A stretch of 64,000 nucleotides of DNA from Hormiphora californensis (Eukaryota; Animalia; Ctenophora): NCBI GenBank assembly GCA_020137815.1, contig CM035354.1, forward strand, positions 5,890,001 to 5,954,000, in the 5' to 3' direction. The translations under genes and the position numbers were made by a program. The notes beneath the pieces are model-generated. The model was not told the origin of the DNA, ran no database searches, and saw only the letters and a program-made list of their open reading frames with translations. The stretch's first letter is position 1, and every line of letters starts with the position of its first letter. Positions 28,401 through 64,000 of the stretch are shown piece after piece.

Positions 28401-31400
28401 GCATATTTATGCACCTATTCACGATTTTATGCATATTTTCAATATTTTCACTTCGGCTGGTCCTAGAACGTTTTCATGGACATATTTCGACGCAAAATAG
28501 TCGATTTATGGGGGGTCGTCCCCCGGACAAAAAGTCGTATCTCGCACTGTTAAGCCGTTATTTGCATATTTATGCACCGATTCATGATTTAATTAAATCA
28601 TCAGCCGAACTGGAAATATTCAGAATATGCATTAATGCATATTCTGAATATTTCCAGTTCGGCTGATCCTAGAACGTTTTCATGGACATATTTCGACGCA
28701 AAATAGTCGATTTATGGGGGGTCTTACTCGGGACAAAAATCTCTATCTGGCACCGTTCAGCCGTTATTTGCATATTTATGCACCGATTCATGATTTAATG
28801 CATATTCTTAATATTTCCACTTCGGCTGGTCCTAGAACGTTTTCATGGACATATTCCGGCGCAGAATAGTCGATTTATGGGGGGTCGTCCCCCTGACAAA
28901 AAGTCGTATCTCTCACCGTTTAGTCGTTATTCGCATACTTATGAACTATTCAAGTTCGAAAATATGCAGAAATCAGAAAAAATAGCTTTTTCTATTTAAC
29001 ACCAAAAAGAACAGAAATTAAGTCCAAAAACCAATTAAATAAATTAGTTTGGATGCCCGGGCCCATGTGGTGTCACGGGGGTAACACCTTTAGGCTACTG
29101 CCATAATTAACGGCATATCTCGTTAATTGTTAATTGTTATCCTTCAATCTTTCTATCTCTATCTATCTCTCTCTCACTCTCTCTCTCACACTATTTTTCT
29201 CTCTCTCTCTCTTTCCCTCTCACTGTTTCTTTCACTATATCTCTCTTTTTTCTTTCTCCTCTTATTTATCTCTCCGTCTTTCTTGATTATATCTCACTCT
29301 TTCTATTCTATCCTAATTTCTTTTGCCTTTATCTCTCTCGATATCCATCATTTATGACAGTAGCCTAAAGGTGTTACCCCCGTGACACCACATGGGCCCG
29401 GGCATCCAAACTAATTTATTTAATTGGTTTTTGGACTTAATTTTAGACATACATATACCTTTGTCCTGTGTATATATGGTTTCATTGATGAGTGTGTAGA
29501 TCTCAAACCCACTGAACACAACTGAAATATATTAGCATTAGAAACTGTTAGAAAACCTGTGAGAAGCTGTTGGAAGATCTGTCAGGTCCTGTGAGAATTT
29601 CTCACTGAGAACCCATAAATTCTTGCCTATACATGTGTCAATCACATTTAGAGAACTTGCCCCTTCAACTTACCCCAAATAAGTACGTAGAAGATGATAG
29701 CTTTCACGATAGTTTTCCTTCTGACCACGAAGAATGGAAAGATCAGATGGATGGTCCTCACCATTTCAATAGTCAGACTCACAAACGCAGACATCCGGAA
29801 GGAGAGAAGGGAGGTGAAGTAGGCGACATAGCAAACCACCATTAGAAATGTAGTCACATCTCGGTTAATCAGGAGAGTTAGGAAGGCGATGGCGTGGAGA
29901 AAAGCACAAATTGACGTCATCAGATCACTGCTTGATAGAACCAGGTAGAGGAGTTGGACAAGGGAGAGGGCTCGGCGGCAGCAGCATATCACAGTTAGGT
30001 TCAGTAGGATGCCTGCCATCCCAACCAACAGACAGCCCAGGAAAGTGAGGATTATACACTCAGTTGACAAGTCCTCAGTGAAGGTGGGCATCTTTGACTT
30101 TGAGTTTGATTTAGTCATCCAAATACTTGGATCCCCTGTTGTCATGGCCGAGGAAAGGCCGGTGGTATCAAAGGCAATGCGTCCAGCTGCACTTGTCAAG
30201 TTCATGGCTATATCCTGAGTGGAATGGGGAACAGATCAGAAGTTTGTGCAGCTGTCGGGGGAACAAATAGTGTGGAAATCATAAAAATGAAATCGATACT
30301 AATTATTATATGGGGGACACGGGGATGGGGGTACCAATTTGCTTTTTAGTATACTCGAATACTTTGTATAACAGAAACGTATGTTGGTGCCCCCCCCCCC
30401 CTAAGCATCTAAACACTCTCAACTTGTTTCTCAAGCACAAACTGTACGAATATATTGCCATATTCAGTATTAGAATATTAGACGAATCTCTTTGCTAGAC
30501 ATCAAGCCGATATATTGTACAACTATATAAGCCTGTAATATACAGAAAGATCAAAGAACATAAAGCATGTTATAGAGCTTATAATCATAGATTGTCAAGA
30601 AATATTGACGCACAAAGGGTATTGTAAGATGGCGAACAAAAAGTTGAAGTGTGCCTTTGAAAATACAAAACACTTGCCTAAAATTCTCCACTCACGGTTT
30701 ACACTCTCTAAATTCTCATTTTCCTACTCTCTATTATAAACATCTCTATTTATATAGTTTCTTACTCTCCCGAGTCCTCATTGGGAAAGGGCACACAACT
30801 TTAATGGCTGTACTCTTTAACAAGCAACATATTGTGGAGCCACTACCATTGTTCACTCATCACCCCACTTCTCTAAATAGACCAAGGGGTCCTGCACAGG
30901 GCCTTTGAATATTCTAAAGTTGTCTCTTTAAAACCACCCATTTTTTTGAAGAGTTCCATGTAAACACGAGAAAGATAGAGAGAAAGAGAGCTGAAGACAG
31001 GTAGTTTTTTACCCACAATGTTGAATAAAAACAGTGCTCTGCGCCACGTGCTTGATCTGTGTGCACTGTGCTGAGTGCACACTGTGCACATGACGGAGAA
31101 TGAACAGAAAACAAAGGGCACACAAAGACGGGGAGACTGAATCGGAATAAAAAGGCAAAAAGAAATGCACGCATTTAATTGTGAAATGAACGGAGTAGAG
31201 AAACAAAGAAAACATACGATTCTACTTTTTAAACAACCTCGACTGATGGTATCAAGCACATTAAGAGACTACAGAAAACTGGAACTATGCTCTCTCTCTC
31301 TCGGGGAGTCTCCTGTTTAACTCTTTGAGCTAGTCTCCACTCAGAGTTCCTCTAAAAAAGGCACATTAAAATATCATGCCAATGTGAATTATATTCCTGT

Positions 31401-34400
31401 TATCAGTAGGTACTACTGTCGCTTATAATGAACTAATGAACTTATATACTGAGCAGGATAAAGAGGTGTTCTTCGATCAGCTTTCGTTATTTTTGAGTCC
31501 TAGGCAGAAATCAGGAAGTTGTCCTACTCAAGGGTGAAATAACGGGGGAGAAAAGGGGACACTGGTCATGGCAATTCAAATGATGGCTTCAATGAATTCA
31601 GTAGGTAATCTCTTATCTAGATGGTTCGGTATATTCAGCGTGGCATCCAGGGTCTCCGTTGTTAAACTTTTTCATAAATTGGACAGCTTCTCTACGCATT
31701 CATAGTCACGCATCAACAGTCATTTATACGCATTCACAGTCTGTTATACTATTCAACTGAAAAAGGATTCTGCTCAGTTCTGAATAAATCTGGGTTCCCA
31801 TATGTTGTCTATTTTGGCAACACACCGCCTCAAGTATAACTGTTTTATATATGATTTAGTTGGCCCATTCTCTAATATATCTAACCTAGTCTCAGATTCT
31901 CTAATATATCTCACATCCCCCAGCTCTAGATCAGATACGTTAGATGTTATCTTGGAGAAACAGAAGAAAGTGCTGCACGGAGAGGAAGGGAGGACACTGA
32001 AATACATTCCCAAGGTGAGAACAATTAGAACTCGCCACTCCTTAGCATGCAAATATCAATATTATTATCAATAATATTATCAATAATATTACAATTATAA
32101 TACAACACGCTGTTTGACTAGTAGGAGAGTCTGGCGAAAAGTATACTGTAGCGATGAAAAAGTGACGAAAAACTTCTTAGGACCTTGCTTGCCGACTTCA
32201 GTATTACTTCGTCATTACTTCATCTAATCAAATTGAGTTGGGCGTATACAGTATAGGATAAATCTACAGATTAAATCACACAAAAGGCCTAGGGTAAAAA
32301 GATGAAAAAGTCAAAGAGGGAGATGGCAAAAGCGCTAAAGTCTATCAACACCTTCACTAAGTACTGCCGCAAAAGCAAGGCAGAAGTTCTCAGTGCACAT
32401 GGGAATTTCTCCCACAAACTAAAACTGTTTCTTACTATCCCTCCACTAGTGCCGCAGTTCTCTCGTAGAGCCACCTCGTGTACTGCACACTCACTCGTGC
32501 GACTATAATATAGTGCTTACTGCTTACTGTGAACTTGGGGTTGGAGGTTAGTATTGTCAACACTGTTACACACTAGATACAACTGGAATGTGATGCCGTG
32601 TAGTACCTGGTGCAGCTCGGAGAAGTAGTTAACGCTTGTTAGACTGTCTGGAATCATAATTTTAAGAAATTGGGCTTTTGAGAGGAAAGAAATTGGGTTT
32701 TTGAGACGAGAGGAATTTAAAAACCTCTACTAAAATTCTCAATAAGCGAGTTTAAAATTGTACTTCGCCGCACAAGAAAGGTGCAATTAATTTCGATGTG
32801 GTGCCCTTGGTCCCTTTGTTATTAATTATATAGACCAAGTTGTATTGCAAAACAAGTCACCTCATCTTTGGGGGAGATTATAATGAGAGTAGGACACAAA
32901 GAGATTTTGAGAGACTCTTAGGTAGACACATCTTTGTACCATGATATATCAGACAGTAAAAGCCTATCTTCTGACAACAGAGCGGTTACAATATTGAATA
33001 TATTCATTACACTCCCAAAACTTTACATTGCGACACAGATTCTATATGGACCTATTTAGTTTTTTTCTTCCTGAGAATTCCACTTCCAATATCTTCTAAC
33101 CTCCCCTCTCCAATCCTCAACCTCCAACCTCCCCCTCCAACCTCCCCTCCAACCTCCCCCCTCTAACCTCCCCTCTCCAATCCTCAACCTCCAACCTCCC
33201 CCTCCAACCTCCCCTCCAACCTCCCCCCTCTAACCTCCCCTCTCCAATCCTCAACCTCCAACCTCCCCCTCCAACCTCCCCTCCAACCTCCCCCCTCTAA
33301 CCTCCCCTCTCCAATCCTCAACCTCCTCCTCCCTCAGGTGGTGTTTGTGATATGTAGCGGTCTCATCTCCAACACGCGGCACTCCTCCACCCTGCTGTGT
33401 AAGCGGTTCCACCCCCTCTCACCATCCCGTCGTCCCATGACCTGCCAGCCGGCCCTGGAGTGGGAGACACGTGATGTGGAGGATGACCTGGACAGTCTTA
33501 GTGGGGACAAGGTGGTGGGATGTACAAATGATCTGTCAGAGGTGGAGGAGATGGAGGCCCAGATGACACCAAGAAGTGAGGATACCACAACCCCAATCAC
33601 AAATAGAGAGGAGGAAGAGGAGGTGAAGGAGGATGAAGTTATAGAAGTCAAACCCGGGGAAAACAAAAAGATGGGGGGAGTCTGGCCTCAAACGGCGGTT
33701 TTTTGGGTCGTCGAGTGCGATACAAATACATGTTTCATGTAAAGAGGGATTTAACAAAAACAGGAAATCTAACTAAAAACGGGTCAAAGTTTAATCTCAG
33801 CCCCCCGGCGCCTTTTTTATCACAGGGAAACCCAAAAAGAGGGCCCAAAGGATGGGAAAAATACATCATGAAGCAAATTATTTTTGGTTCCCACAATCCC
33901 CCAAAAAATAGGGGTAAATTTTTTCTAAAAGGCGGGGAGAAACGAAAGGAAGGAGTAAAAATTTTTAGGCACATGCCCTAAATCTCTTTTTGGGGGCCCA
34001 GATTTTGCATTAGAAAAGGGGCGGAAGGGGGGGGAAGAGGGGAGGGGAGAGGAGGGGGGAAAGAGAGGGACGCAGAGAGGAAGGGACCCCAAGGGCCCCC
34101 ACCCGAGCAAACCCAACCTTTTTCCCCTTTTTTTTTTCCCCTTTTTGGAAAAAAGGGGCACGGCGGGGTGCCCCCCAAAACCCGCCACGGGTGGGTTAGA
34201 AAGGGATTACCCCCCGCCTCTGAAAATTTTCTCTCTTTTTTGTTCTCATCTCATCATCCCCCCTCTTTTCCCCCTTCTCTCTCTCCCCTTTCTCCCCCTA
34301 AAATAAATTTACTCCCTGGGATTTTATCAGGCCCCGGGCATTGGATTTACCCAAGGTGCTTTACTTTCATCAGACACGTGACCCCAAAAGGGAAAAAAAC

Positions 34401-35997
34401 CCGTAACAATAACAAAAATAAAAATTTAAAGGGGGGGTTGGGGCTGATTTCCAAAAAACGGAAAATAAAAATTATTGGGGAAGGAGGGGGGGAAAAAAAG
34501 GGGAAACCCGAGGGGGGAACAAGAGAAAAAAGAAAAATAGGGGGGCGACAGAACCCCGGGGGAAGGAAAAAAAAAGGGGAGAGAGGGGGAAGGGGGGAAG
34601 GAAGGAGGGAGGAAAGGGAAAGGGGGAAAGGAAGAAAAAAGAAAAAAAGAGAGAGAGAGAGAGAAGAAGGGGGCAAAAAAGAAAAAGGAGAAAAGGGGAA
34701 GGGGAGGGGGAGAAGAAAGAGGAAAATGGGAGGGGGGGGAAAAATGGGAGAAAAAGAGGAGGGGAAGAGAGAAAAAAGGAAAAGGAAAGGGGAAAAGCGG
34801 GAAAAACAAAAAAAGGGAAAAGGGGGCGGGGGCCGGGGAAGGGGGAAGGAAAAAAGGAGAGAGGAAGGGGGGGAAAGAGGGGGGGGGGGGAGAGGGGGGA
34901 AAAAGGAGAGGGGGAGGGGGAGAGGGAAAGGGAGAGAAGGGAGAGGAAGAAAAGAGAGGAGAAAGAAGGGAAGGGAAAAGAAAAAGAGAGAGAGAGGAAA
35001 ACCGGGGGTGGGGGGGAAAAGGGGGAAAAGAGGGGGAAAAAAAAAAAAAAAAACAAAAAAAAAGGTAGAGTTCTTAAAAGAGAGTTTTTAAAGTTTTCTT
35101 GGAATTTGAAAAAAAGAGATTGGGCCCCCCCCCCGCGGGGGGGTATTTCCTTTTTCTTTTCTCCTCTCGCCCGCTTTCCTCTTCGTCTTTCCCTCCTTTT
35201 CCCTCTCTTTTCTTTCTCTTCTCTTCCCCTCTCTTCCCTTCTTCTTTGAGTTGCTTCCGCACTGCTTTTTTTCCCAGGGAAACATGAGATAATTTCCTCT
35301 TCAGCGGCCGCGTGGAGAGCCTTGTGGCCGTTTCAGTGGTCCTGGAGAGAGAAAGGGAAAAAAAGAAATCATTGTGCGATATTGACACAGTCATCCGGCA
35401 AATTAACGTCGGAATTTGGGAATCGGTAAGAGAGATCACACTGATGAATCAGTATAATGTCTGACGTCTGTTTCCGGTATCTTTTATTTCTGTGCAGTAC
35501 TATAATAACATTAACTAATTGTTCTAAGCCTTCGTATTTTCTCCCAGGTCCTAAGTTTGAGTCTCTATCAACAAGGAACCCTCCTTCGCCGTTGGGTGGA
35601 AAACCTAGCAGCCCCAATTCTCACACCTAGGCAGTTGGAAACGATGTCGCTGCTTGATCTTGAAGGACTTTCTGAGGCTGTGGACAGGCTGCCTCCCTCG
35701 ACCAGCTCTATCATTCACTGTCTCTGTGTTACTTTCAGTGCTGTAAGTTAGAAGAGAGAGAGAAATGAACTCGTCGGTGAAACTTTTGAGACATTTAATT
35801 TCTTAAACACCAATCAAAAATGTGTTTCTCTCTCTTTACAGCTCCTGTACGGTCCTTTACTGACACGAAGAGAGGAAGTGCAGCGAGCGATTAATATGCT
35901 TTTGTCTAGTGGGAGCATCTCCTTACAAGGTAACAAAACTCACAGTGACAGCTCTGTGAAACAGAGAAATAATATTGTAATAGCAACTGTAGTTTAA
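25432..35997 (+). CDS. PTPDC1: Protein tyrosine phosphatase domain-containing protein 1
   Basis: CGGKTCKYE..AIPGLFSHWVTDTILAMAR..VINLQENGEHASCG..SGFSYDP..VAIHCH[A]GLGRTGVVIAC (needs removal of 1 base near 26361)..VRKNRPRSIQTRNQL..QKKVLHGEEGRTLKYIPK..WVENLAAPILT. Exons at about 25432-25542, 25639-25808, 26126-26433, 26652-26770, 31924-32014, 33338-?, 35278-35425, 35548-35743, 35842-35997. Confidence 0.9.
26857..30205 (-). CDS. Rhodopsin-like 7TM GPCR nested antisense in a PTPDC1 intron
   Basis: Three phase-compatible exons (about 29674-30205, 29459-29521, 26857-27413). GILLN in TM1, LSSSDL in TM2, MVRTIHLIFPF at TM3, NAALNPMILISRG in TM7. Confidence 0.88.
27695..29443 (-). mobile_element. Composite non-autonomous Helitron-like element with internal tandem array and inverted repeat, inside the nested GPCR's intron
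   Basis: Minus-strand end ...cagcCTAG|T at 27695, preceded by GC hairpins (tgggggcacagccccca). Four units of about 165-205 bp at 28320-28950. An inverted repeat of about 86 bp at 29015-29100 / 29358-29443. The right boundary is uncertain. Confidence 0.5.
33090..33335 (+). repeat. C-rich minisatellite (cctccaacctcccc-type) upstream of a PTPDC1 acceptor
   Basis: A unit of about 67 bp repeated about 3.5 times. Confidence 0.85.
33640..35400. other. Low-quality or garbled sequence (probable raw-read gap fill across a GA microsatellite)
   Basis: Abrupt switch to homopolymer-inflated A/G then C/T runs; flanking PTPDC1 exons degrade progressively into it. Confidence 0.8.
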
Positions 35998-44079: not shown

Positions 44080-44240
44080 GTACTCTTCGCCGATTGTTAC
44101 TTTCGATTTTTAAATTCCGATCAGCTGATTTACGATTAGTGTTCGCACAAACGGAATTTAAATTATAAAGAAAATTATTTAAATACAATTATTGTATTTT
44201 TATAATCAACTTCACATTATAAAGAATAGTAAAGAGTGTT

Positions 44241-46064
44241 ATGACATACTTGACTTTGGGGAACTTTGGATTATTCCTCTTCTTTCTCTACCTGGCAAAC
44301 TCCTTCAACGTTTTCTATACACTTTACTACCCAAAACTTTGTACCGAGGACTCAATATCATGCCTGTCGCCACAGTTTCCACCCGAAGGGAAATATGATC
44401 TTTATCTGTATGCCACAAAGACTCAAGGAACTGTCAACAGAGACGGTTTAATTTTCAAGAAAGAGGGCGTATCTCTTACCGATTCACTGGAAGAGGACAT
44501 CCAGGTCACTTTAGAAAGGGGCTTTACTAAAAATGTAACAATTTATGGTCAGGTTCTAGTGGTTAAATCAGGTGCTGATCCCCTTTCTCGGTCTACTGTT
44601 TCTGCCAACTACCTAACTACACTGACATCCCTCAAGAGACCGGATTCAAAGAAAGTGAACCTGCTTGATGGTATATCTGTAATAGATAACTCGACTATAA
44701 TCTCGCACTGGCGGCCCCGGCTCATAGTTCATATATTGGATCCTGATATAAAGTTTGACAGCGGTGATTTTCCCATGGAGTTCAGACGGGTCATGGATAG
44801 AAAGAGTCTAACTTATCGGCCTGTCCTCTACGTTGATCAGCTGAGTCTGACTAGACGATACGATGTTCCAATCACATCAGAGAGGGTAAATCTAACAATC
44901 AGTTTCTCACCCATCACCATTGGAAAAATGAGGATATGGTTACAATTTGAGGAGGCTTTAAACAACTTGAGAGCTCTTGGTTTTGGTGAGGACGATGTGG
45001 ACGAGGTTAAGGGAATCTTCTCTGACACGAACATGTACTTCCTGACCCTCACATTCATTGTATCGGTCTTCCATCTTCTGTTCGACTTCCTAGCCTTCAA
45101 AAACGATATCTCCTTCTGGAAAAAGAGGAAGAGCACGGTCGGGTTGAGTACTAGAGGTGTGGTGTGGAGGGCGGTTAGTCAGATAATTGTATTCCTGTAT
45201 CTGTGTGAACACAAGACATCATACATTGTACTGGGACCTGCTGGAGTTGGGATGATTATAGAAATGTGGAAGGTCAGCAAGAGTCTCAAGTTCTCTCTTG
45301 CTGGAGGGAAGGTGACATTTGGGGAGAAGAGTGAGGAAGAGAAGCTGTCGGAAGAGATTGATAAGGAGGCGATGAGATATCTTCAGTGGCTTGTGTACCC
45401 ATTGCTGTTTGGCGGTGCTCTATACTCTCTCTTTTATATGCCTCAACGCAGCTGGTAAGTTAACACATACAGGCATTCCTATTGACTATTACACAGTTGA
45501 GTGCTTTCAGATGCACTGTTTACTTTAACATATTTTGGCAATGGCATATTGAACATTTTATGTCCATCTCTCCACTCTAACCTCTCTTTCTCTTTATCCT
45601 CCCTGACCCCTCTTTCTCTCTCTTTCTCTATCTCTTTCCTCCAGTTCCACTCTGACCCCTTTCTCTCTTTCTTCAGGTATAGCTGGGTTATTAACACCCT
45701 CGTGAACGGGGTTTACTGTTTCGGATTCCTCTTCATGACACCCCAGCTCTTCCTAAACTACCGCCTCAAATCTGTGGCCCATCTCCCCTGGAGAGCGTTC
45801 ATGTACAAGGCATTCAACACGTTTATTGATGATGTCTTCGCATTTATCATCACCATGCCAACCGCTCATCGGATAGCCTGTTTCCGGGACGATATTATAT
45901 TCCTGATATATCTCTACCAGAGATGGCTGTATCCCGTGGACAAGAAACGGGTTAATGAGTTCGGTCAGGTATTTGAGGATGAGGCGATTGAGGGAAGTGC
46001 TATTGAGGATGTGAAGAAGGATGGTAGTTTAGAGATTTCTGAAACTGAAAAGAAGAATCAGTAG
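44241..46064 (+). CDS. CLPTM1L: CLPTM1-like protein (lipid scramblase family)
   Basis: Exons 44241-45454 and 45677-46064. DEVKGIFSDTNMYFL..FDFLAFKNDISFWK..PQLFLNYRLKSVAHLPWRAFMYKAFNTFIDDVFAFIITMPTAHRIACFRDD..YQRWLYPVDKKRVNEFG. Confidence 0.95.
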
Positions 46065-46301
46065 ATATTTGGGAACAAAGCTGATCTTTCTTTATTTGTT
46101 TTGGTTCTTGTTATGGTTGTTAAGATGGGATCTCGATAGGTTTCATACACGACAATTTGTTATGTTGGGTTTTAATCATCTTATTTATTATTGATTTTGC
46201 TATCCCGTTTAAAAAATTGCTTTCCAAAATCAATCCCCTCCTTCTTATATTTCCAATCCCCGACAAATCACCACAAAACCCTACATTATAGTACACACGA
46301 G

Positions 46302-47315: not shown

Positions 47316-50300
47316 AGTTGGTCCACCTGCCACCACCTCCTATCGGTTTCCCCCGGGCAACAGGGTCACACGGAGTACCTTTTCCCCATCCCCTTTTCCC
47401 CTTGATCGATTTTCAGGTCCGTGTGGCCGTGGCTAAGCGTGGCTGTGTATCAAAAATACGGAAAAAAATCATAAAATACAAAACACAAAAAGATCTTCTT
47501 GGCTAGGCGGCCCACAGTGTATCATCGCCAACTATTACGTTCCTACCCCGCCTTCCCCGGCTTAGGGTTACCCGTGGAACAGGCACCTTCCAGCCACCTG
47601 TGGACCTCCAATGCCCCTTTATCTACTAACCCACTAACCAATCCTGATACTAATCTGCTAACCCCCTAAACCTCCCATTAATAGGGTACCCCGATCCAGA
47701 GAGAATAGTATACCCCTTACCCCGCGCCTGAGAGGATAGTTTACCCCGCTCCACAGAGGATAGTTGCCCCGATCCAGAGAGAATAGTATACCCCTTACCC
47801 CGCGCCTGAGAGGATAGTTTACCCCGCTCCACAGAGGATAGTTGCCCCGTTCCGGAGAGAATAGTATACCCCTTACCCCGCGCCTGAGAGGATAGTTTAC
47901 CCCGCTCCACAGAGGATAGTTGCCCCGTTCCGGAGAGAATAGTATACCCCTTACCCCGCGCCTGAGAGGATAGTTTACCCCGCTCCACAGAGGATAGTTG
48001 CCCCGTTCCGGAGAGGATAGTATACCCCTTACCCCGCGCCTGAGAGGATAGTTTACCCCGCTCCACAGAGGATAGTTGCCCCGTTCCGGAGAGGATAGTA
48101 CACCCCTTACCCCACACCTGAGAGGATAGTTTACCCCGCTCCACAGAGGATAGTTGCCCCGTTCCGGAGAGGATAGTATACCCCTTACCCCGCGCCTGAG
48201 AGGATAGTTTACCCCGCTCCACAGAGGATAGTTGCCCCGTTCCGGAGAGGATAGTATACCCCTTACCCCACACCTGAGAGGATAGTTTACCCCGCTCCAC
48301 AGAGGATAGTTGCCCCGTTCCGGAGAGGATAGTATACCCCCTACCCCGCGCCTGAGAGGATAGTTTACCCCGCTCCACAGAGGATAGTTGTCCCGTTCCG
48401 GAGAGAATAGTATACCCCTTACCCCGCGCCTGAGAGGATAGTTTACCCCGCTCCACAGAGGATAGTTGCCCCGTTCCGGAGAGGATAGTATACCCCTTAC
48501 CCCGCGCCTGAGAGGATAGTTTACCCCGCTCCACAGAGGATAGTTGCCCGTTCCGGAGAGGATAGTATACCCCTTACCCCACACCTGAGAGGATAGTTTA
48601 CCCCGCTCCACAGAGGATAGTTGCCCCGTTCCGGAGAGGATAGTATACCCCTTACCCCGCACCTGAGAGGATAGTTTACCCCGCTCCACAGAGGATAGTT
48701 GCCCCGTTCCGGAGAGGATAGTTGCCCCGATCCAGAGAGAATAGTATACCCCTTACCCCGCGCCTGAGAGGATAGTTTACCCCGCTCCACAGAGGATAGT
48801 TGCCCCGTTCCGGAGAGGATAGTATACCCCTTACCCCGCACCTGAGAGGATAGTTTACCCCGCTCCACAGAGGATAGTTGCCCCGTTCCTGAGAGGATAG
48901 TTTACCCTGTTCCTGGGAGGATAGTTTACCCCGTTCCAGTTAGATCATAATGCTTCACATATATGTCCCCGTTACAGATCCACCATATAGACATATAGAT
49001 ACACACCCGTACGCTGAAAGTGTCGGTTCGTGCTGAAAAGCTGCAAGGATGGCCGGGTAAACCATCCACTAACGGACCAAATGTGGCGGTGGGATTCCGT
49101 TACCGCTGTGCACCGGTGGCAGTGTTAAGACCCCCAAACCCGGCTCTTCTTCTAACAAACCGATGACTATGTATACACAGTGATTGGTTTGAAACTCACC
49201 CCCAAAACTTACTCATCTTATTCGACATGAGTACTAACACCCGTAAACCAAGGAAGGTCTGGTCTAAGCAAGAGAACCTAGACTTGGTGTACTGCTACTA
49301 CAGCAGCAACCCAGGCACATCCGGATCCTGGAAGAGGCTCGAACGCCTATGGGAAGACAAGGGACACGACCCATTAACAGGTGCCAAACTCTCAAGCCAG
49401 TTCAGATCAATAGAGAAATCTGGACACATGGTAACACCGCAGGAGATGGCTGATCAGCGAATGCTAGCAGGGCTAGCAGCATCTGGCCTAAATATACTCC
49501 CGGAAGTGGATCTCACGGTGAATGATAACACTGCGGGTCCGAGTACCTCGGCAAATGGGGACACCACCGATCCCCCACCACCACCCCCAACTAGAGCGCC
49601 ACGAACGAAATGGACCACAGAAATGAACATTACGCTCGTGTTCATCCACTCGTACTCACAACCTGACAAAAGAGGAGTATGGAACCGAGTGGAGGAAAGG
49701 TGGTCAAAGACAACCTACCCTTCCAAGACTGATGACCAGCTTAGATCCCAACTGAGATCTATAACTCAGTCGGGACTCCTTTCACCACAGAAGCTGATGG
49801 AAATCAGAACAGCGGCCGTAGCCGACCGTGAAGCAACTGAATCGGCACGACAGGCTGTGGTAGAGGACAACCCACCCCCAGAAACCATTGAACCCCCCAC
49901 AAACCCAGTGGAAGAGGAAGAGGAAGAGGAAGGGCCATCACCGAACCCTGAAATCGTGGAGCAGTTCAAGAAACTACTCGAGGAACCAAGCTCCATCAAA
50001 GTCACCGACTTGAGGCATGTCCCCTGGGGGAAGCTACGAGTGGCAATTGACCGACTCAGCCCGGTAATCAAGTCCTTTGAAACTCCAGACCTTACCACAC
50101 TGAACACGCTACTGATGGCCGTAGCCCATGTGGTCCGAGAACAGATGGGCGTTAAGGCACCAAGCGAACCCACCAACAACACCCCCAGAAGGAATAAACA
50201 ACCTATGTGGCTGCGACGACTCGAAGAGAGTGTCGCCAAGCTTCGCTCAGACCTCTCCAGGCTGACCGAAATGAGCAGAGGTGCCACCCACAAGTTCCAA

Positions 50301-53296
50301 ACTATAGATATTATCTATAGAAGATACCCGCTGCTGCCCAAGAAGGGCTATAAACAAGTTATAGAAGAAGTGAAGCAGAGACTGCTAGCGAAGGCCGGAA
50401 AGATTAAGAGATACAAGAAGAAGCAGCAGACATTCGTTGACAACAACCTGTTCCAGAACAACCAACGAAACTTTTACCGGAAACTGGAGAAACGTGGATC
50501 GGACCCCACGCCACTCGATTGTACTCCAGAAGACCAGACCAGGACGCTTAACTTCTGGAAAAATATCTGGGAAAACGAGGCTGGTCATAACACTGAAGCA
50601 GAATGGTTAGACGGAGTCCAGGAGAACTTTGAAACAGTCAGCCAACAGGAAGAGTTTCAGATCACCACGGAAAGAGTTGCAGCTCGGGTGAAAGGAATGA
50701 CCAACTGGTCAACCCCAGGTATAGATGGTCTCCACGCCTTCTGGATTAAACACACGACTTGCCTCCATGGTCGGATAGCTGAGCTACTCAACGAAAGTCT
50801 CATTACGAGTCAAGTCCCGGCATGGATGACTGAAGGCAGGACCTTCCTCCTGATTAAAGACCCCAAGAAGGGAATGTCAAACCCGGGGAACTTTAGACCC
50901 ATAACCTGCCTTCCGAACCTCTGGAAGCTGTATACAGGAATATTATCAGAAGACATCTACCAGCACCTCGATGTAAACGGGCTCTTTCCGGAAGAGCAGA
51001 AGGGGTGCCGCAAAAAGAGTCGAGGATGTAAAGAACAACTAGCAATTGACAAACTTATCCTACGTCATTGCAAACGCTCAAAGTCTTCCTTGTATATGGC
51101 TTTCATAGACTATCAGAAGGCATACGACTCGATCCCCCACTCCTGGATCCTTAAGTCAATGGAGATGTGCGGGATAAACCCTCAGATAATCCGACTATTC
51201 GAGTCATCATTCCAGCAGTGTATTGTCAACATCGTCCAATCTGGGTCAGACTTAGGTAAAATACACATCAAGAGAGGCCTCTTCCAAGGAGACTCCGTCT
51301 CCCCTATTCACTTTATTATAGGCCTGATCCCCCTGTCCATGCTCCTAGCTGCCCAAGGAAGAGGCTACACCATATCTGAACCCAGTAAGCTCCAGATCCA
51401 GATATTAGTATTAACCACCGCCTATACATGGACGATCTTAAGCTGTATGCCAGCTCGAAAGAGGACCTTCAGCAGCTCTTAGCAGTCACTGAGAAGTTTA
51501 GCACTGACATCAACATGTCCTTTGGTCTATCCAAGTGCGGAGCTCTAGACATTGTGGACGGAGTCAGAAGTCGGATGCAGGGAATAAGCCTACCAAGTGG
51601 AGACAGAATACCCGAGGTGGAAGATGGAGGCTATAAGTACCTCGGCATCCTGGAGGTTGACCGTATTCTTCATCAAGAAATGAAAGCTAAGGTCAAAGCC
51701 GAATACACCCGAAGAGTCAAGAAACTACTGTCCTCGAGCCTGCAAGGCAAGAACCTCATCACAGCAATCAACACATGGGCAATACCTGTGATCCGTTACG
51801 GTGCCGGAATACTGGACTGGTCCACTTCCGAAGCCAGTGGACTAGACATGATGACTAGGAAGATCCTGAGAAGAGGAGTCATCAAGAGCAACAGTGACAT
51901 TGACCGGCTGTATGTTTGCAGGAAACTGGGAGGAAGGGGTCTCCAACGGATTGAAGATGTCATTGTGAAGGAAGAGACAGGACTAGTGACATTCTTCACC
52001 AATTCCACGGACCCCAAGATCCGTGCCCTCCACACGGCGATGCAGTCTGAAGATATGCTAACTGGACCTCCAGAAGACGCAGAAGCCCTGAAGGAAAGAC
52101 TACAGACGGAACTTATAGAGAAATGGAAACACAAAGTCTTACATGGAAGATTCCTGAAGCAACTTGAAGAAGGGGGATGCGACCCTGACGCGACCTGGGC
52201 CTGGCTCAACAAAGAGAGCCTCAGCAGATACACCGAAGCCGATGTCTTTGCTGCCCAGGATCAAGCCATTCGCACGAACTGGTTGAGAGCTGCCATACAG
52301 AAAGAGAATGAAGTGACTGAGAAGTGCCGGATCTGTAACCAACACAACGAGTCAGTGGAACACATCCTAAACGGATGCACGAAACTTGCCAACGGAGACT
52401 ATAAACTCCGACACGATCGAGTAGCTGCTGCCCTGCACTGGGGAATATGCAAGGACCACGGATTTCCTACCGAATCAAAGTGGTGGAGCCACTATGCAGA
52501 GAAAGTGCTCGAGAATGAGAACTGCAAGATCCTCTGGGATTTCCACATTCAGACGGATAACCCCATCGAGGCATGTAAACCTGACGTGGTCCTTCTAGAC
52601 AAACTAAAGAAGGAAGCGCTTCTGATCGATGTCGCTGTACCAAAGGACAGGTCAGTCTCGGACAGGGAGATGGAGAAGATCGAGAAGTACCAAGAACTAC
52701 GGAGGGAGCTCACACGAATTTGGGATCTTAAAAAGGCCACGGTCATCCCTATCGTGATCGGAGCTCTTGGCGGAGTCAGCCCCCGACTGGAGAAGTACCT
52801 GACTGCTATAACCCGCCAAATTTACCCTTCACAGCTTCAAAAGTCAGTCCTCTTTAACTCGATGAACACGCTCCGGAAAGTTCTCGACATGTAATATTAC
52901 CTCCCGAGCTGTCCCCCCTGTTATTGTCAATTATTTTTTTACCCTTTTTACCCGTTCCTGCTTGCCCCTAGATTTCCCTAGATTCAGACAGTTTGCTTCT
53001 TCAGTTCCTGATAAGTTGCCTCTTCTTAGGCTCCGTTCCAGAAGGTTGGGCTTCTTTCCAGATAGCTTAGGAGGTCTTATGCTCCGCCACCATGAGCTTT
53101 AACTCCCCTTTAAATGTTTTCCCTTACTTTATCCCATATGTACATTGTTCAACTTTCCCCTATGTACATTGTTTTACCTACCTTTACTCCGCAGGCCCTC
53201 CGGGCCCTCAGATCCAACAGGATCCGGGCTCGGGGGATTTAACCCTGCTCACGCATGGGACCTTACGGCCCCATGCGGGAGTGGTGCGTGTAGTGG

Positions 53297-57077: not shown

Positions 57078-58273
57078 ATAGACAATTGACACTTGAAGTG
57101 CAGGAATTTCTCTTTGAACTAAAAAATATATTGGACTCTTTTATTTTCTTAGCGTGATTGTCCACGTTGTTTTGCTTCCTCTTCAACACATGATGCTTTG
57201 TGTTTTTTTGTGTGTTAAGAGTAAGAGGGAGCGAGTGTGATAAATCGATAAAAAGATAGGACTCTGGATCCATTATGGGATTAATATGTTCAACACGATA
57301 TATGCATGCGACAGTACTGTTTCTTTTTGCGTGTGTAGTGGTTTTGATGTTGTTATTTAACGATTGTTGAGCGAGGTGATGTTGTTGTGTTATAACCCAA
57401 ATCATCAATTGAGCTCTCAGTATATTGGCTGTTTTATTGGTCTTCCTCTCCCTAAATACCAACAATATTTCCCCATACCACTTTCATTCTCTCTTTTTTC
57501 CCAACCTTCATTCTGTTTAGCGTTCAATGTCACAAGCTCTAAAAAGAGAAGTTATTCACAAGATAAGAAAGTCAAGACGGAAGCCGGGAAGCCAACATGA
57601 GCTAGTCAAAATGGTAAGAGCTTGTTGCCTGTTGGGATAATTATAAATTATATACGGCCAGACTGTAGCAAGCCGGATGTTTCACTTTCACTTTACCGAA
57701 TCAAGCTCCACTGGTGATTGGCGATAATTTAAGTGACTGTGAAATTTGAAAATCAGAGAGGTGTCCCGTGGCCTGGTGGCCACTGATTGGCCCAGTCACG
57801 GTTATAAAATGATAATTCACTTATCCCAATTCCGTATTTGCATTGGTAATTCTGACAGTACTCACAAACATGGTTGTATCCATCCCTAGTTCACCTGCCA
57901 ACTCTGGAAAATCTCCGGACGATTTGGAAATCAATCTAGATGATGTTGATACCAACAAGGATATCGCCAGTCCAGCCCCATCCAAGGGGTAAGTGTGAGG
58001 GTGTTGCTAAGTGAGAGCTCCTTCATAAAATAAATTGTTGTTGTGGAGGTGCTGTAATTTTGCTGTGCACGCTGTTGCCTGGGTATTGGTTGTGGAAAAA
58101 GCGGGGGAGAGAGACGAGAGAGATAGTTGAGAGAAACATATGTGCACGGAAACGCTAGTGATAAAATTTTAGCACAGTACCAGGCCATAAAACCATTTTC
58201 TCTCCTGTGTATCGGCAGCACTTGGTTGTTGTGTTTCTCTTCTCCAACTTTTGTAAAATTTGTCCGCAAAGTC

Positions 58274-61009
58274 ATGACGGTTCCAAAGGATTTGAAAGCC
58301 CCGGGTCGAGCTAAAAAGGAGCCTGAGCAAACAACCCCCGTGGCTCTTGATAATACTCCTCCCGCTGATAACAATGATGATGTGAAGCCTGCAGAACCTG
58401 AAAATTCTGTTACTAAAGAGGCTGAAAAGGAGGAAACATTAGCTACAGATGGTTCTCCACCTGTTACTAAACAACCCATACCTGGGGATCATAAGGAGAC
58501 TGTCCCTCACTCTACTACTGCGTGCGTTGAAAAAATTTCTCCACTGAGTGCTGCATTGTTCAGAAGTTATGGGAGTGCCGGCAGGCGCCTTTGGCCAAAC
58601 GAAGCACAGCTGTACCTAAAAGCACTAAAAATGATAAATAAAAACTGCAGTTTAGTAAATCTAAATTGATCAAAGTTGAGACCGAAATAGAGCTATCTGT
58701 AGCTTTAGTTGTACTGTGTGTTTGGCCAAACTTTATGTCTAGGTTACTAAAGCATTGAATCATCAGCATAAAATCAAGCGGTGCAAAAGACGAGTGGAAA
58801 CTTGCGTTTGCCAACTTATGGTATGCCGTATTGTACTCTTACAGTGTGCCGTCTTTAACCCGTTTATCGGTGAAAAATGAGAGATTTACTCCTTCATATA
58901 TTACTCCTTCATAAAACCCTTTTAATACTACAGGAGCCTATCACGAGCTTCCTTCGAACGGGAAACTTCCGGCCGCCGAAGTTCCGACGATTTTTCCGTG
59001 ACATGCCAGTAAGACTCATTTAAATCAAAATCTCTTACACACTTTCTTTCAAAAAACTTCTTTTCACACAAGTGATTCTTTTATCTGACTGAAGTTAAAG
59101 AGGGGTTTTCATTTTCAAAAACGTGAACTCTAACAGTGTGGACATGTGTGGTAGTGGATCATTGGTAGTACAACTGCTTACTATTTCACTTTCAGATCGG
59201 AGTCGGCAGAAGTCCCTGAGATTGATGATCATCTGTTAATGGAGTTTATGGAGGACAATGAGATTATCATCGCTAAATTCCTACATTATCTTCAGTCAAT
59301 TGGGCTGTTCCCTCTCTCTGATCCTCGCTTCAAGAACATCATCAACAAGTAGGTTGGGTTTGAGTCACTGAAATAAAGTTGTGGTTTCAGGTGTAACAAA
59401 CGAGTCCAAGTTGTTCTGGGTGCTCGATCTGTTAATTATTATAACCACTCTTTCAATTCCTAACTACATAATGTTCTCTCAGAATGAAGGCATACAGTAG
59501 GGAGGGGGTAATGCCTGAGACTATGCCCCCTGATGACTTCAAAAGGTGTCTCGGCTCCAACCTTGTGTTCTGCCAGCAGGCCCTACATGGAAACCTGATT
59601 ATCCCTGAGTGGAAGACCTTCACCGATCACCTTGTTGAGTGTTTCGACTCCTGCAAGGAAATCACCGAGGGAACGGTGAGAATTTATAATGATAGGGCTT
59701 TCATTCCTCTTACATTGGGTAAACTAAAGTTTGGTTATAGACCCATTTACCACCATTCTATACACTCCTAGTGGATGTTATCTAGAGAACATGTTGCAGG
59801 TTGAGTCCCTGACACCTCAATTAAGGAATGTGGACCCTGACGCATGGGGCCTCTCCGTTACCACTGTTGATGGACAGAGATTCAGTATTGGGAACTCTAC
59901 TAACCCGTACGTGTTGTAGTGTGTTTATCCCTGTTTCAGTGTGGAATATATTCCCAGTACTAATTGATTAACTAATTGATTTGCTAATTGATTAACTAAT
60001 TGGCCACCCTCTCCTGTAGGTTCCCCCTACTCGACCTGGCCCGGGTGATCTCGTATTGTATGGTGGCTAGTGATGAGTCCTGTGAGTATGTCCACAAGTA
60101 CATTGGCAAGGAGCCAAGTGGCACCCAGGCGGAGGCCCTAGCTCTAAAGGACGGTAGACCCCATAACCCCCTCCTCATGACGGGTGGAGTGACTCTGAAT
60201 TCCTTGATGAAACCTAAACTCTGCTTTTCCGAGCGGTTCGAGTACTTTTCCACTGTCGTCCAGGCGTGAGTTTCAAATGGGTTGCTAATTTGCAATCTGA
60301 GTGCTAGCTTCCACGAGCTCGTTTTAGAGGCAGCTCAGTGGATCATAGACTAGGTTTTCATTCAGGTTTTTGGTCTTTATTTGAGGCCATTTCCTAGGTT
60401 TGCTGGTAATGACTACATTGGGTTCAATAACTCCCTCTCCCTGGCCCTGAAAGATCACTCCAACCGATTGTACGCTGTGGGTCACTTCCTCAAAACTAAC
60501 AAGTGCCTGAACAAAGATGATAACGTGAGTTGTGATTGGTACTCTGTTTGAATCTTTATAATCCGTTGACATGACCCATTAGCTCCCATACAAATTAGCA
60601 TTATGGTTTCCAGTGCAGTAGCTGCAAATTGTAACCATGCCCCTATTCCCTGACAATTACCTCCACTCGACAGATTATCCTGGACGAGGTTACTGAGCTG
60701 GATATCCACTTCTCCTCAATCGAGGCAACATGTGCTAGTGCAAGTGTCATCGCAGCGACACTAGCCGCCGGTGGAATCTGCCCTCTAACAGGTTTAGAGC
60801 GATGTACTGCGGTGTTTTTTCTTTCTACAAATTAAAACTTCTATTTACCAGCTCTGAATTTAAAGCTGAAATTATTAATTAACAACATTAACATAATTGG
60901 AAATTAACTTTCAGCGGAGAAAGCGGCTCTTCCGGACGCAGTTAGGAACTGTCTCAGTCTGATGAACTGCTGTGGAGTAAACGATTACAGTGGAGAATTC
61001 ATGTTTGAG
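58274..61009 (+). CDS. Glutaminase homologue 2, predicted catalytically inactive; 3' exons presumably beyond the window
   Basis: Nine phase-compatible exons (about 58274-58521, 58934-59008, 59196-59348, 59483-59675, 59800-59906, 60020-60265, 60397-60524, 60674-60791, 60915-61009). SVTTVDGQRFSIG, YIGKEPSG, RPHNP, AATLAAGGICPLT, CGVNDYSGEFMFE. Confidence 0.9.
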
Positions 61010-61092
61010 GTATAAGGGGGCTTCCATGCCCGTATTTATTTCTGAAAGGCTCACTTTTTTGGGGGCTGAAGTCTGTAAACTGGAACATAGTC

Positions 61093-63471
61093 TCAAACAA
61101 CAGCAGACCTTATCACCGAACTCCTGCGGTTCACTATTATTCCATTATTTCCGGGATAAATTTCCTCCATATCTTCCACGCCCACTCCGCAATACTCCGG
61201 TATATAGGTGCTGTAGAAGATGGGGTTAAGAAGGCTGTTGCTAGGCAAGCACCACTAAACTAAACACCTCGTAGATGAACACTAGGCGGGGCTGCTGGGT
61301 TAATCCAGCTGTAGTAGAGAACGGTGAAGATGTAGGACAAGCCAAGCGACCACCTGACTTCCGATTAGAAGAGACAGCTTCAATGCGAGCTTATCAACGT
61401 AATCGCTGTTATTCAGGCCGCTGTTGGCCGAGGTTAGAAAGCTAGCCACCAGGATGGAAGCATATGAGATGGTGAGGATAGATAGCAACACGCCAACTAC
61501 GACACAGTATGCGATCTTGTAGTAGAGGTAGCTGGCCTGGTTCTTGAAGATGTTGGCAAGGCAAAGAGGGCTGTTTCCATAGTAACCAATGCTTAGGTAG
61601 TCAAAGATTTCCGGCTTCGATGTTAAGTCCCGAAGGTCCGCTAATACCGTCTCAATGCTCAGCGAAGGTTCTGCAGCTGAAGCCCCATCCTCAGTTGCAT
61701 TATATGCGAGAGAGTGCATCATTCGGAGATGCTTCTCGTCATAACTGGGTATAAAGGGATTCTCCTGGCCAGCTAGTAATAGGATATCCGTCCGGAACAC
61801 CCTCTGGATTACAGACATGGGTAGCGCTGGGAGGATGGCATGGACAAGGTTAAGGACTCCGAGCACTAACGAATATACCCAAATGGCCCTTATGGAGATA
61901 TCCTTCACCAAATCCAAGCAGGTCAGGCACCGGACCAGGCTCATCATCGTTATGAGGAGGAAGGATCCGTGTGAGGAGAAGGAGAAGAGGCATCCCAGAG
62001 CAGAACAGCTGAGGCTAGACCTCCACTTTTCGTCTAGCTGACAATACTCGCCAAAGGAACGTAGACCCATCGCAAAGAGGATCAAAATGACAGAGATAGA
62101 GTCCCATCAAGAGATCATAAAATGCCACCTGTATCCTCAGAACCCTGTCAATTTTTCCAGGTTTACTCTCCGGGGTCGTTTGGATCGTGACGTGTCCTGT
62201 TTTGATGTTTAGTAACACAATAGCGACTCCTCCAGCGAATGCAAGGAAACTCAGCACGTTCGATCGAATGAGAAACTTTCTAGAGCTGAGTCGCCCAGTT
62301 GGACACCCAACACACTCATCCATGCCATTAGCACAGTCCCTTACCCCATCACAGACCCTCTTTTCATCAATCCAAGTGACCTGGTCATGTTCGGTCTCAA
62401 GACCACTACAATAGAACCTCTCTGGGCAGTACAACTCATCGTGACCGTTGGAACAGTCGATGAAACCATCACAAACCTGTCCAGAGTCCCACAGATAGTC
62501 GCCGTTGATGGGATCGCAGGAAAAAAGGGCTGTAAGACTGATGCCCTGTTACGCCCACTTTTCACCCTTTTGCAAAGGCCCGACAACCAGCTTTCAGGAT
62601 CCGTGGTATCAGATGTTTTGTTCTGTGGGAGATACGGCCGGATAACCTTTTCACAGGCCTCCGCCTCTGGATCAGTGCTCAATCCTAAGGCCTTGAGTCT
62701 ATTGCCAGCCCGGAAGATCTCCATCTGATCCATTTTTAGAACGGTACGGACGGTCTCTGATACAGATTTTATTTTGTCGCATTGCACGCTAGAGTAACCA
62801 TCGCAAGACAAGAAGGATAGAGTTCTTTTTAGGTTCTGAGAACAGAGCTCTGTCTCGGGGATACACCCAGTGTAGGATTTATCGGGAAGACACTGAACTG
62901 TCACGGCTCCGCTACACATACACTCGTCTGTGCCTCCCTCGCAGTTGGCTACCCCATCACACACTTGGGAGAAAGGAATGCAGCCGCCCAACTTTCCTGG
63001 ACAGTAGAACATTGGTTTTCCATTACACTGACACTCATCAGTCAAGCAGGCACTTGTTCTGGTGCATTTTACCTGGGCCTCATCGGGATCAGTACCTCCA
63101 ATAACGCACGTTATACCAATCGTAGACTGTTGCTGGAGAAATGTGTATAATTCTTTGAGCATGTCATCAGTAGGTTCTCGGTCTCCAGGCAAAAACTTGT
63201 TTTCCATGAATTGTATGAGATCAAAAACACCTCGACATTCCACATAGTTACCATTAAACGGGGTTACTGCAGTGAAGTTGGTGAACTTCCAAGTTATATT
63301 ACCATCTGGTCCTGAGTAGCTGAGCTGGTTAACGACGCCGTTCAAACAGGCCACCTTCTCGTATTCATATACACTCCCACCGGCTGGGACCATGTTCGGT
63401 GCCCTGATCTTGTACGTAGAGGGTGCTCCAAGGTGAACCAGTGTGGCAAGGAATATGATACAGGAGAACAT
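61093..63471 (-). CDS. LDLa-repeat GPCR (GRL101/RXFP-like 7TM, no LRRs), apparently intronless, nested antisense in a glutaminase-2 intron; about 5 frameshifts
   Basis: Signal peptide MFSCIIFLATLVHLG; LDLa repeats (CIPFSQVCDGVANCEGGTDE, VCDGFIDCSNGHDE, VCDGVRDCANGMDE); AFYDLLMGLYL, WRSSLSCSALG, YYGNSPLC, NSLLNPIFYS. The stop position is uncertain. Confidence 0.8.
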
Positions 63472-63480
63472 GATCACAGT

Positions 63481-63585
63481 CCTGTACCGAATCATGATAT
63501 ACTGGTCCCTGATTGGCTGATAACCAGTCACGTGACCTAAATAACGAGTTCTGATTGGTCGTTTACTCGTTTCGGTCGGTTCCTG
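63481..63585. mobile_element. Short MITE-like repeat just upstream of the LDLa-GPCR start codon
   Basis: accgaa..ttcggt inverted ends with internal ctgattgg (x2) and gtcacgtgac. Resembles a high-copy repeat I recall from Pleurobrachia sequences (unverified). Confidence 0.6.
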
Positions 63586-64000
63586 CTGTACTTTTACCGG
63601 TTCGAGGAGGGTTCCTTATACAATATACATCCTAAGATGGTTTTTGGTATTTCGTGCCAGGCTAGAAATACAGGCGAAAAGGGCGTGGCGCGGAAAGCCA
63701 ACACACATGGGAGCGTGCGTCATTATTTTTTGGTGATTCTGGGGACCTATCTGAGCACTTTGGCGGTGGAAAACAAAACTTGCAAACTACTTAGTTACCA
63801 AAATCACCTCATTTTGGCATAATTTTCCTGGCCTAAAAAGGATAATCATTCGATGCAGACACAATAGGAAGGGGACCTATGAATACATTTTGTAACAATA
63901 GAAGGCCCTGGGTTGGGAGCGTGTCTACCTTCCTTTAATTGTATATCTTGAAGTGGATGATCCCTTTAACAAGCAATGGAATTATTGGAACTATTGTTTT

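Follow-up and report, generated by a model that had tools for sequence, protein, structure and literature searches.

The question raised by the DNA studied here, a 64,000-nucleotide stretch of the Hormiphora californensis genome (the window), is what a glutaminase gene encodes once the residues that make its product an enzyme have been replaced. The gene in question, P2, is a spliced GLS-type glutaminase gene with an open frame; its nine exons in the window (57870-61009) encode 411 amino acids and end at a GT donor. A complete paralogue, P1, lies 50 kb upstream (ten exons, 574 amino acids). In both exon models, all introns are GT-AG and all exons are open. Positions are those of the window, and active-site residues are numbered as in human KGA, the correspondence being set through an ungapped match of a P1 exon to residues 203-306 of 8gwr_B and through the opossum GLS row. 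The two genes are composed as follows.

57870..57988, + strand: likely main first coding exon of P2, acidic N-terminus (ATG, GTAAGT donor, phase fits the next exon)
58274..58521, + strand: possible alternative first exon of P2 (open frame, weak donor, right phase)
58934..59008, + strand: predicted P2 exon 2, Ser/Arg-rich (AG/GT ends, phase 2-2)
59196..59348, + strand: P2 exon 3, EF-hand-like, with a one-residue insertion common to intact ctenophore GLS
59483..59675, + strand: P2 exon 4, where the EF-hand-like part ends and the glutaminase domain begins (Pfam EF-hand_14 below the cut-off, E 0.0012)
59800..59906, + strand: P2 exon 5, lid; Leu (59809-59811) replaces Tyr249
60020..60265, + strand: P2 exon 6; Asp (60033-60035) at the Ser286 site, Arg (60042-60044) at the Lys289 site, Met (60177-60179) at the Asn335 site; activation loop altered
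60398..60524, + strand: P2 exon 7; Leu (60447-60449) at the Glu381 site, Leu (60468-60470) at the Asn388 site; tetramer helix with Asn at the Asp386 site
60674..60791, + strand: P2 exon 8; Asp (60701-60703) at the Tyr414 site
60915..61009, + strand: P2 exon 9; Asn (60980-60982) at the Tyr466 site; bulk of the predicted dimer face; GT donor next
61010..64000, + strand: likely long P2 intron (more than 2.99 kb), donor at a position common to P1
4700..8242, + strand: P1, with EF-hand-like, glutaminase and ankyrin parts; 8 of 10 active-site residues replaced

The homology of P2 to GLS is far above chance, with a match to human GLS at E 5e-13. Its exon at 60021-60263 matches the Pfam Glutaminase family at E 4.8e-10 (39.5 bits against a curated cut-off of 27), and its core is 45% identical to that of opossum GLS. 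The Bolinopsis orthologue of P2, P0282, scores 248.5 bits against PF04960 and has both the EF-hand-like bundle and the C-terminal ankyrin repeats; ankyrin exons are also present in P1. The three-domain layout, the predicted fold and the predicted dimer face are common to the P2 type and animal GLS (KGA/GAC) and GLS2 (PF04960, PF17959 and ankyrin; PDB 8gwr, 5uqe and 5w2j).

The active site tells a different story. In human KGA, glutamine is contacted by Tyr249, Gln285, Ser286, Asn335, Glu381, Asn388, Tyr414, Tyr466 and Val484, and alanine at Tyr249, Ser286, Lys289 or Tyr466, introduced singly, causes a strong loss of activity (PMC4929687). P2 is replaced at 9 of the 9 active-site residues within the window (Y249L, Q285L, S286D, K289R, N335M, E381L, N388L, Y414D and Y466N), nine rather than ten sites being scored since position 484 falls outside it. 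Asp-Leu-Ala-Arg (60033-60044) stands where an active glutaminase has the Ser286-x-x-Lys289 dyad, Asn and Leu stand at Tyr466 and the lid residue Tyr249, and the substrate-binding positions Gln285, Asn335, Glu381, Asn388 and Tyr414 hold Leu, Met, Leu, Leu and Asp. P1 retains only Gln285 and Val484 among the ten, six replacements are common to P1 and P2, and P2 orthologues are replaced at 10 of 10. All ten residues are intact in 331 of 436 near-complete glutaminase domains (517 domain matches, 424 proteins). The phosphate-site residues Lys320, Arg387, Tyr394 and Lys398 of a phosphate-activated GLS are Ala, Arg, Phe and Asn in P2; intact ctenophore enzymes also deviate here (Gln320, His398). Compared with animal GLS, the P2 type is thus without the SxxK dyad, Tyr249, Tyr466 and the substrate-binding residues, and is changed in the activation loop and at Lys320, Lys398 and Asp386.

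P1 and P2 are GLS family members by descent, yet by sequence they pass none of the tests for an active glutaminase. Judging from the work on human GLS, the loss of Ser286, Lys289, Tyr249 and Tyr466 predicts that P2-type proteins carry out no hydrolysis, and the loss of Glu381, Asn388, Asn335 and Tyr414 predicts that they do not bind glutamine normally. They are very probably dead enzymes, and we refer to them as such below. It is hardly credible that they are active enzymes with a new chemistry or substrate, with Asp and Arg standing in for Ser and Lys. The Asp/Arg pair does occupy precisely the positions of the dyad, and none of the 11 dead sequences (the set used for all conservation counts) departs from it. 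But the proton-relay Tyr466 has been lost as well, as have the lid and every side chain that binds substrate, and no enzyme with an Asp nucleophile is known to us among those of the SxxK fold.

An initial annotation of this locus had quoted a series of motifs from P2, and all lie where it placed them: FPLLDLARV (60021-60047), VESLTPQ (59800-59820), HNPLL (60162-60176), ALALK (60135-60149), LKDHSNRLYA (60447-60476) and CGVND (60971-60985), with P1 counterparts at 6082-7127. It had taken D-L-x-R, LTPQ, ALALK, LKDHSNRLYA and CGVND to be shared by the paralogues. The dead-type motif is D-[LF]-x-R, and departures from LTPQ, from ALALK and from KDHSN each occur in some relatives. Four intron positions are common to P2 and P1 (after 59008/4806, 60265/6536, 60524/6791 and 61009/7151), and three in P1 and four in P2 are unique within the shared span, as the annotation had described.

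How long have these genes existed in this form? The P1 and P2 proteins are 54% identical (207 of 381 aligned residues), and their synonymous sites are near saturation: the proportion of synonymous differences (pS) is 0.69, synonymous divergence (dS) 1.8-1.9 and nonsynonymous divergence (dN) 0.34, with 34 of 87 four-fold sites identical. Their closest relatives are ctenophore proteins, as expected from the suggested ctenophore origin of the DNA. P2 is 72-74% identical to Mnemiopsis G010086 and Bolinopsis XP_063680100, and P1 81-83% identical to G009493 and XP_063679391. Trees were built from hand-picked rows with 20 pocket columns removed, as a quick 40-row mixture tree and a careful 23-row LG+G4 tree. 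P1 and P2 each grouped with separate Mnemiopsis and Bolinopsis orthologues (support 99 in the 40-row tree; 100/99 and 99/98 in the 23-row tree). Since each paralogue has its own orthologues, the duplication predates the split of H. californensis from the two lobates, in keeping with the old duplication that had been proposed. A recent P1/P2 duplication was rejected, given the dS near saturation, the separate orthologues and the lack of intron similarity by blastn. There are at least three old paralogue groups of the dead type. When P1, P2 and three metagenome loci were compared in ten pairs, dN was 0.11-0.36 and dS ranged from 1.25 to saturated; by these substitution patterns, the dead-type genes are maintained by purifying selection. 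As a separate observation, 81 nt of P1 (7073-7153) and P2 (60931-61011) are 90% identical in DNA despite near-saturated synonymous sites elsewhere, which may reflect local gene conversion, or else codon bias combined with strong constraint on the protein.

The dead clade (100/100) is sister to the intact ctenophore glutaminases (94 in the 40-row tree; 97/92 in the 23-row tree). This placement agrees with the one-residue insertion in the EF-hand-like part and the motifs FEVGLP, FHQ[FY]D and HLAVC, which are common to both clades. The intact proteins (XP_063690543, XP_063690163, ACHWQZ_G017577 and G017578) differ in keeping all ten pocket residues and are 39% identical in the core to P1 and P2. 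When a profile of nine dead sequences was compared with 1.84 billion representatives, the clade appeared as one representative (1131 bits), the next scoring 780. Among unnamed intact-type proteins from ENA, three clusters held named Mnemiopsis or Bolinopsis genes with an intact pocket and another the gene with Met for Lys289 named below; a viral origin of these proteins was rejected, as no relative was found in viral contigs. Further degenerate glutaminases grouped with the intact ctenophore clade (P0023, P0430, P0199, P0215, P0183/P0439 and P0403) and show other replacements, such as Met, Asp or Asn for Lys289. Dead copies thus seem to have arisen more than once within ctenophores.

The dead type is represented by named genes in Bolinopsis (XP_063679391, XP_063679327, XP_063681260-2, XP_063680959-61 and XP_063680100) and Mnemiopsis (ACHWQZ_G009493, G010093 and G010086), which bears out the idea of a conserved pseudo-glutaminase subfamily. 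Named intact genes are XP_063690542/3 and XP_063690163 in Bolinopsis and G017577 and G017578 in Mnemiopsis; Bolinopsis XP_063681942 carries Met for Lys289. Dead-type genes make up 5 of the 8 Bolinopsis genes and 3 of the 5 Mnemiopsis genes, counts that refer to the named genes retrieved rather than to full proteomes and to identifiers not matched to the set of Moroz and Kohn. Those authors put the number of glutamate-making glutaminases at eight in Pleurobrachia and at nine in Mnemiopsis, and saw their expansion as connected with energy demand and with glutamate signalling (PMC4685580). Because at least three named Mnemiopsis and five Bolinopsis genes cannot be ordinary glutaminases, the ctenophore count needs redoing. 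The number cited for ctenophore glutamate signalling likely overstates the working enzymes, part of the expansion being pseudoenzymes as the initial annotation had suspected, and dead-type genes should not serve to mark cells that make glutamate. Since intact copies multiplied too, the argument from the expansion loses force without falling. RefSeq labels the dead-type proteins glutaminase-like, and a 2026 phylogenomic preprint treats ctenophore GLS as a conserved enzyme (10.64898/2026.09.05.749567). No description of dead GLS-type glutaminases was found in the titles and abstracts of the literature searched, the coverage of which was incomplete.

Retention of the replaced pocket across the duplication had been taken as a sign of selection on a new binding surface. 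In the 11 dead sequences, 6 of 10 pocket columns were invariant, against 150 of 306 (49%) in the domain, 51 of 64 (80%) kept structural positions among the canonical ones and 12 of 23 replaced canonical sites, and no excess constraint on the pocket relative to the domain was found. As the pocket shows no more invariance than the domain as a whole, and a plugged pocket would fit equally, these counts lend no support to selection for a new binding surface. Free variation of the pocket among orthologues had been named as an observation that would speak against the proposal, and the outcome was divided, with six replacements invariant and positions 285, 335, 414 and 484 variable (Phe, Asp, Ser or Thr at 414). 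We consider it rather improbable that the pocket was rebuilt as a ligand- or protein-binding site (Asp286, Arg289, Thr250, Asn466 and Asn483) that would turn the protein into a sensor of metabolites. At each of the four positions probed by mutagenesis in KGA (249, 286, 289 and 466) the replacement is invariant in the set, five invariant replacements around the pocket are polar and the helix LKDHSNRLYA is nearly invariant, all of which would suit a sensor. The column counts and the four variable positions do not; three of the six invariant pocket residues are leucines, and Asp286 and Arg289, at i and i+3 on a helix, perhaps form a stabilizing salt bridge.

An AlphaFold model of P0282 (144-row alignment) had a mean predicted local distance difference test score (pLDDT) of 86.4 and matched mouse GAC (5w2j) by Foldseek with a template modelling (TM) score of 0.93 and a root-mean-square deviation of 2.2 A, although its alignment consisted mostly of intact glutaminases, which pulls the model toward the GAC fold. 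Unlike the pocket, the predicted dimer face stands out for its conservation: 26 of 30 residues were invariant among the dead sequences compared to 126 of 286 elsewhere (Fisher p 1e-5), and the face was identical to an intact ctenophore paralogue at 23 of 30 positions compared to 106 of 286 elsewhere. Asp386 is Asn in 11 of 11 dead sequences, and Arg387 and the filament residue Asn375 are kept. In human GLS, activity depends on tetramers and filaments (PMC8800119, PMC9949068), and Asp386 bridges to Lys396 in GAC tetramers (PMC8800119).

The first 40 residues contain 0 Arg and 7 Asp/Glu in P2 and 8 Arg and 1 Asp/Glu in opossum GLS, a comparison of composition only; the P2 type is without the Arg-rich, presequence-like N-terminus of animal GLS. 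The remark that neither P1 nor P2 begins with a mitochondrial presequence agrees with this, but it does not single them out, as four intact ctenophore N-termini (P0070, P0066, P0059 and P0182) are likewise not presequence-like by composition. Dead and intact ctenophore proteins may therefore share the cytosol. The intact ctenophore glutaminases could be cytosolic and regulated unlike mammalian GLS, in view of the missing Arg-rich N-terminus, Gln320 and His398.

Dead glutaminases are not confined to ctenophores. In the bichir protein annotated as GLSL or glutaminase liver isoform (Polypterus XP_039628727 and Erpetoichthys XP_028679460; P0042 and P0433), 10 of 10 residues are replaced, with the same Leu381, Leu388 and Asn466. 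It groups with vertebrate GLS (94/95) and thus has a separate origin, convergent with the ctenophore clade at these three sites. A 68-row domain-only tree with the pocket columns kept had joined the ctenophore clade to Polypterus GLSL (89). A single ancient dead subfamily common to ctenophores and fish GLSL was rejected by an approximately unbiased (AU) test on full-length rows with pocket columns removed (p-AU 0.023), the group tested having been named after the first, domain-only tree was seen.

A second kind of case is found in two-domain, protist-type glutaminases, for instance of Saprolegnia, Achlya and Aphanomyces, which pair an intact with a degenerate domain as we propose for ctenophores. 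They differ in that the domains are fused in one chain, the replacements are others and the Asn/Glu/Asn binding residues are often kept. With both domains near-complete, and a domain called intact when Ser and Lys were kept with at most one other change, 46 of 51 such proteins had one intact and one degenerate domain, 4 had two intact domains and 1 had none; the set comprises named oomycetes, many unnamed proteins and several near-copies, so that these are not 46 independent cases, which weakens the parallel. Identifiers beginning with ANDGO and CFRG we take to be Andalucia and Creolimax. Among the two-domain glutaminases (P0174, P0178, P0181, P0188, P0192, P0201, P0205, P0213 and others), the named oomycetes carry the dead domain at the N-terminus, and most of the rest carry it at the C-terminus. 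Across these sequences, dead glutaminase domains have arisen repeatedly. Plant PDX1.2 acts inside mixed oligomers; its likeness to the present case is one of function only, the fold and pathway being unrelated to glutaminase. It has been described as a non-catalytic pseudoenzyme regulator of PLP (pyridoxal 5'-phosphate) synthase (PMC6829848).

Our favored explanation is that the dead proteins serve as non-catalytic subunits: by way of the kept dimer face they would associate with intact glutaminase and tune its activity. This is a tentative reading to which we give slightly less than an even chance. For the partnership as such we would put the chance at even or a little below. The dead chain is predicted to fold like GLS and to dimerize through the conserved face. 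A predicted complex of the intact and dead Bolinopsis proteins is in line with such pairing, with a score of 0.69 (best of three controls 0.00; contact agreement at least 79%; partner pLDDT at least 86); the mark used was reached by 51 of 78 solved pairs and 2 of 108 mismatched pairs. In cells that also hold intact glutaminase, mixed oligomers would form with fewer active sites and lower output, and Asn at the Asp386 site, to judge from human GLS, could weaken the tetramer bridges within them. The effect on the intact enzyme would most likely be dampening, of which we are less sure than of the partnership. GLS is a much-studied drug target whose activity is set by its oligomer state, and natural dead subunits, if real, would be a mode of control for which the literature searched gave no description in this family. 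It is a possibility, though a doubtful one, that ctenophore glutaminase is organized as a cytosolic system: several old dead subunits, equal to the live ones in number or exceeding them, would mix with the enzyme differently from one cell type to another and set glutamate output. Within the same reading, the pairing of live and dead domains would be a recurrent and apparently undescribed eukaryote design, realized by separate genes in ctenophores and bichir fish and by fusion in oomycetes and other protists.

Several points weigh against partnership and dampening. The predicted complex reads as likeness rather than binding, because GLS homodimers have been solved and a predictor may reach the mark by reproducing them. 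Close cousins of a true partner also passed it in 10 of 12 cases, and hence the prediction cannot separate mixed dimers from homodimers. Conservation of the dimer face fits homo-oligomers equally, as all glutaminases conserve it. Among the named genes there are at least as many dead copies as intact ones, beyond what a simple regulator would need. Finally, Ala stands at the Lys320 site in 11 of 11 dead sequences, although a loop deletion makes the residue match uncertain; a Lys320-to-Ala change activates human GAC (PMC8800119), and the alternative direction, activation, could thus be what this residue means.

Some of these points would suit proteins that act independently of intact glutaminase, whether as scaffolds made of homo-oligomers or as abundant proteins with a structural role, using their ankyrin repeats and varied N-termini and with the pocket plugged. 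Leucines at positions 249, 381 and 388 would occupy the pocket, and the conserved face suits homodimers. Few parts are as invariant as the ankyrin region (16 and 14 of 20 residues within 500-539 of P0282), and the number of old paralogue groups and the several alternative N-termini in Bolinopsis fit as well. This is the main rival to partnership, ahead of a rebuilt ligand site, but we regard it as unlikely. The dimer face is near that of the intact ctenophore paralogue, also at E471, E475 and Q529, which differ in most of five other animals (shared ancestry also explains this), and intact-plus-dead pairing recurs inside single chains elsewhere.

That P2 itself is a truncated, decaying copy without its last three exons is very improbable. 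These exons (GLPAKS strand, linker and ankyrin repeats) are not in the window, where a tblastn search using the C-terminal ends of P1 and of two orthologues (P0282 and P0049) matched P1 alone; none occurs in the remaining 2.99 kb, and the other introns of the gene models measure 100-945 nt. Against decay, the nine exons are open with canonical splice sites, the P2 branch (0.27) exceeds the path to its orthologues (0.21-0.24) only a little, and both named P2 orthologues are full length. A related transcript is also spliced and extends beyond exon 9. It comes from RNA run X1, which carries the same label but derives from a relative (82-88% alike to the window genes) rather than from this individual. 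Its 1869-nt P2-type contig skips the intron 60266-60397 exactly (splice 60265/60398) and continues 511 nt past 61011, where its end (a two-contig consensus) reads into the next conserved exon. Other X1 contigs join P1 exons over two introns, and a third paralogue type is present among them. P2 and the X1 contigs show 45 differences; 31 of the 40 listed fall at third positions, and five first-position differences are in Leu or Arg codons.

The simplest reading is therefore that the last three P2 exons likely lie past the window end, beyond a long intron holding a nested gene:

61303..63495, - strand: intronless, membrane-receptor-like gene with LDLa repeats and two frameshifts, probably contained in the P2 intron (Pfam Ldl_recept_a below the cut-off, E 0.005 and 0.0004)

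Nested intronic genes are common in this genome, with 1654 host genes reported for Hormiphora (PMC8527503). The end at 61009 in the initial annotation is accordingly that of an incomplete gene which runs beyond the window. Its start at 58274 is probably wrong as well. The exon 57870-57988 aligns to the N-terminus of the Bolinopsis orthologue with a score reached by only 1 of 2000 shuffles, whereas the exon 58274..58521 showed no match to that N-terminus (1211 of 2000 shuffles as good). The latter may be an alternative first exon, as Bolinopsis paralogues have several alternative N-termini. No homology was found for exon 2 (58934..59008) when it was looked for. P1 has a possible alternative first exon of its own at 5243-5280 (+), with an ATG and a phase-2 donor that fits exon 2.

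The one-base frameshifts of the nested gene lie near 62520 (in an A run) and near 62100 and point to either a pseudogene or an assembly error; the receptor label is a likeness, read from hydrophobic segments. Between P1 and P2 there are 7TM (seven-transmembrane) receptor-like frames at 16984-17622 (+), 26860-27480 (-) and 29651-30235 (-), the first two with 7tm_1 below the cut-off and the third with no 7tm_1 match. A CLPTM1-family gene with very long exons lies at 44223-46130 (+; E 1e-100). A reverse transcriptase resembling that of non-long-terminal-repeat retrotransposons spans 49167-52891 (+) in two overlapping frames (RVT_1, zf-RVT), broken near 51400-51480. The sequence at ~33900-35300 is low-complexity and purine-rich and looks to be of poor quality, and 47650-48900 is a tandem-repeat array.

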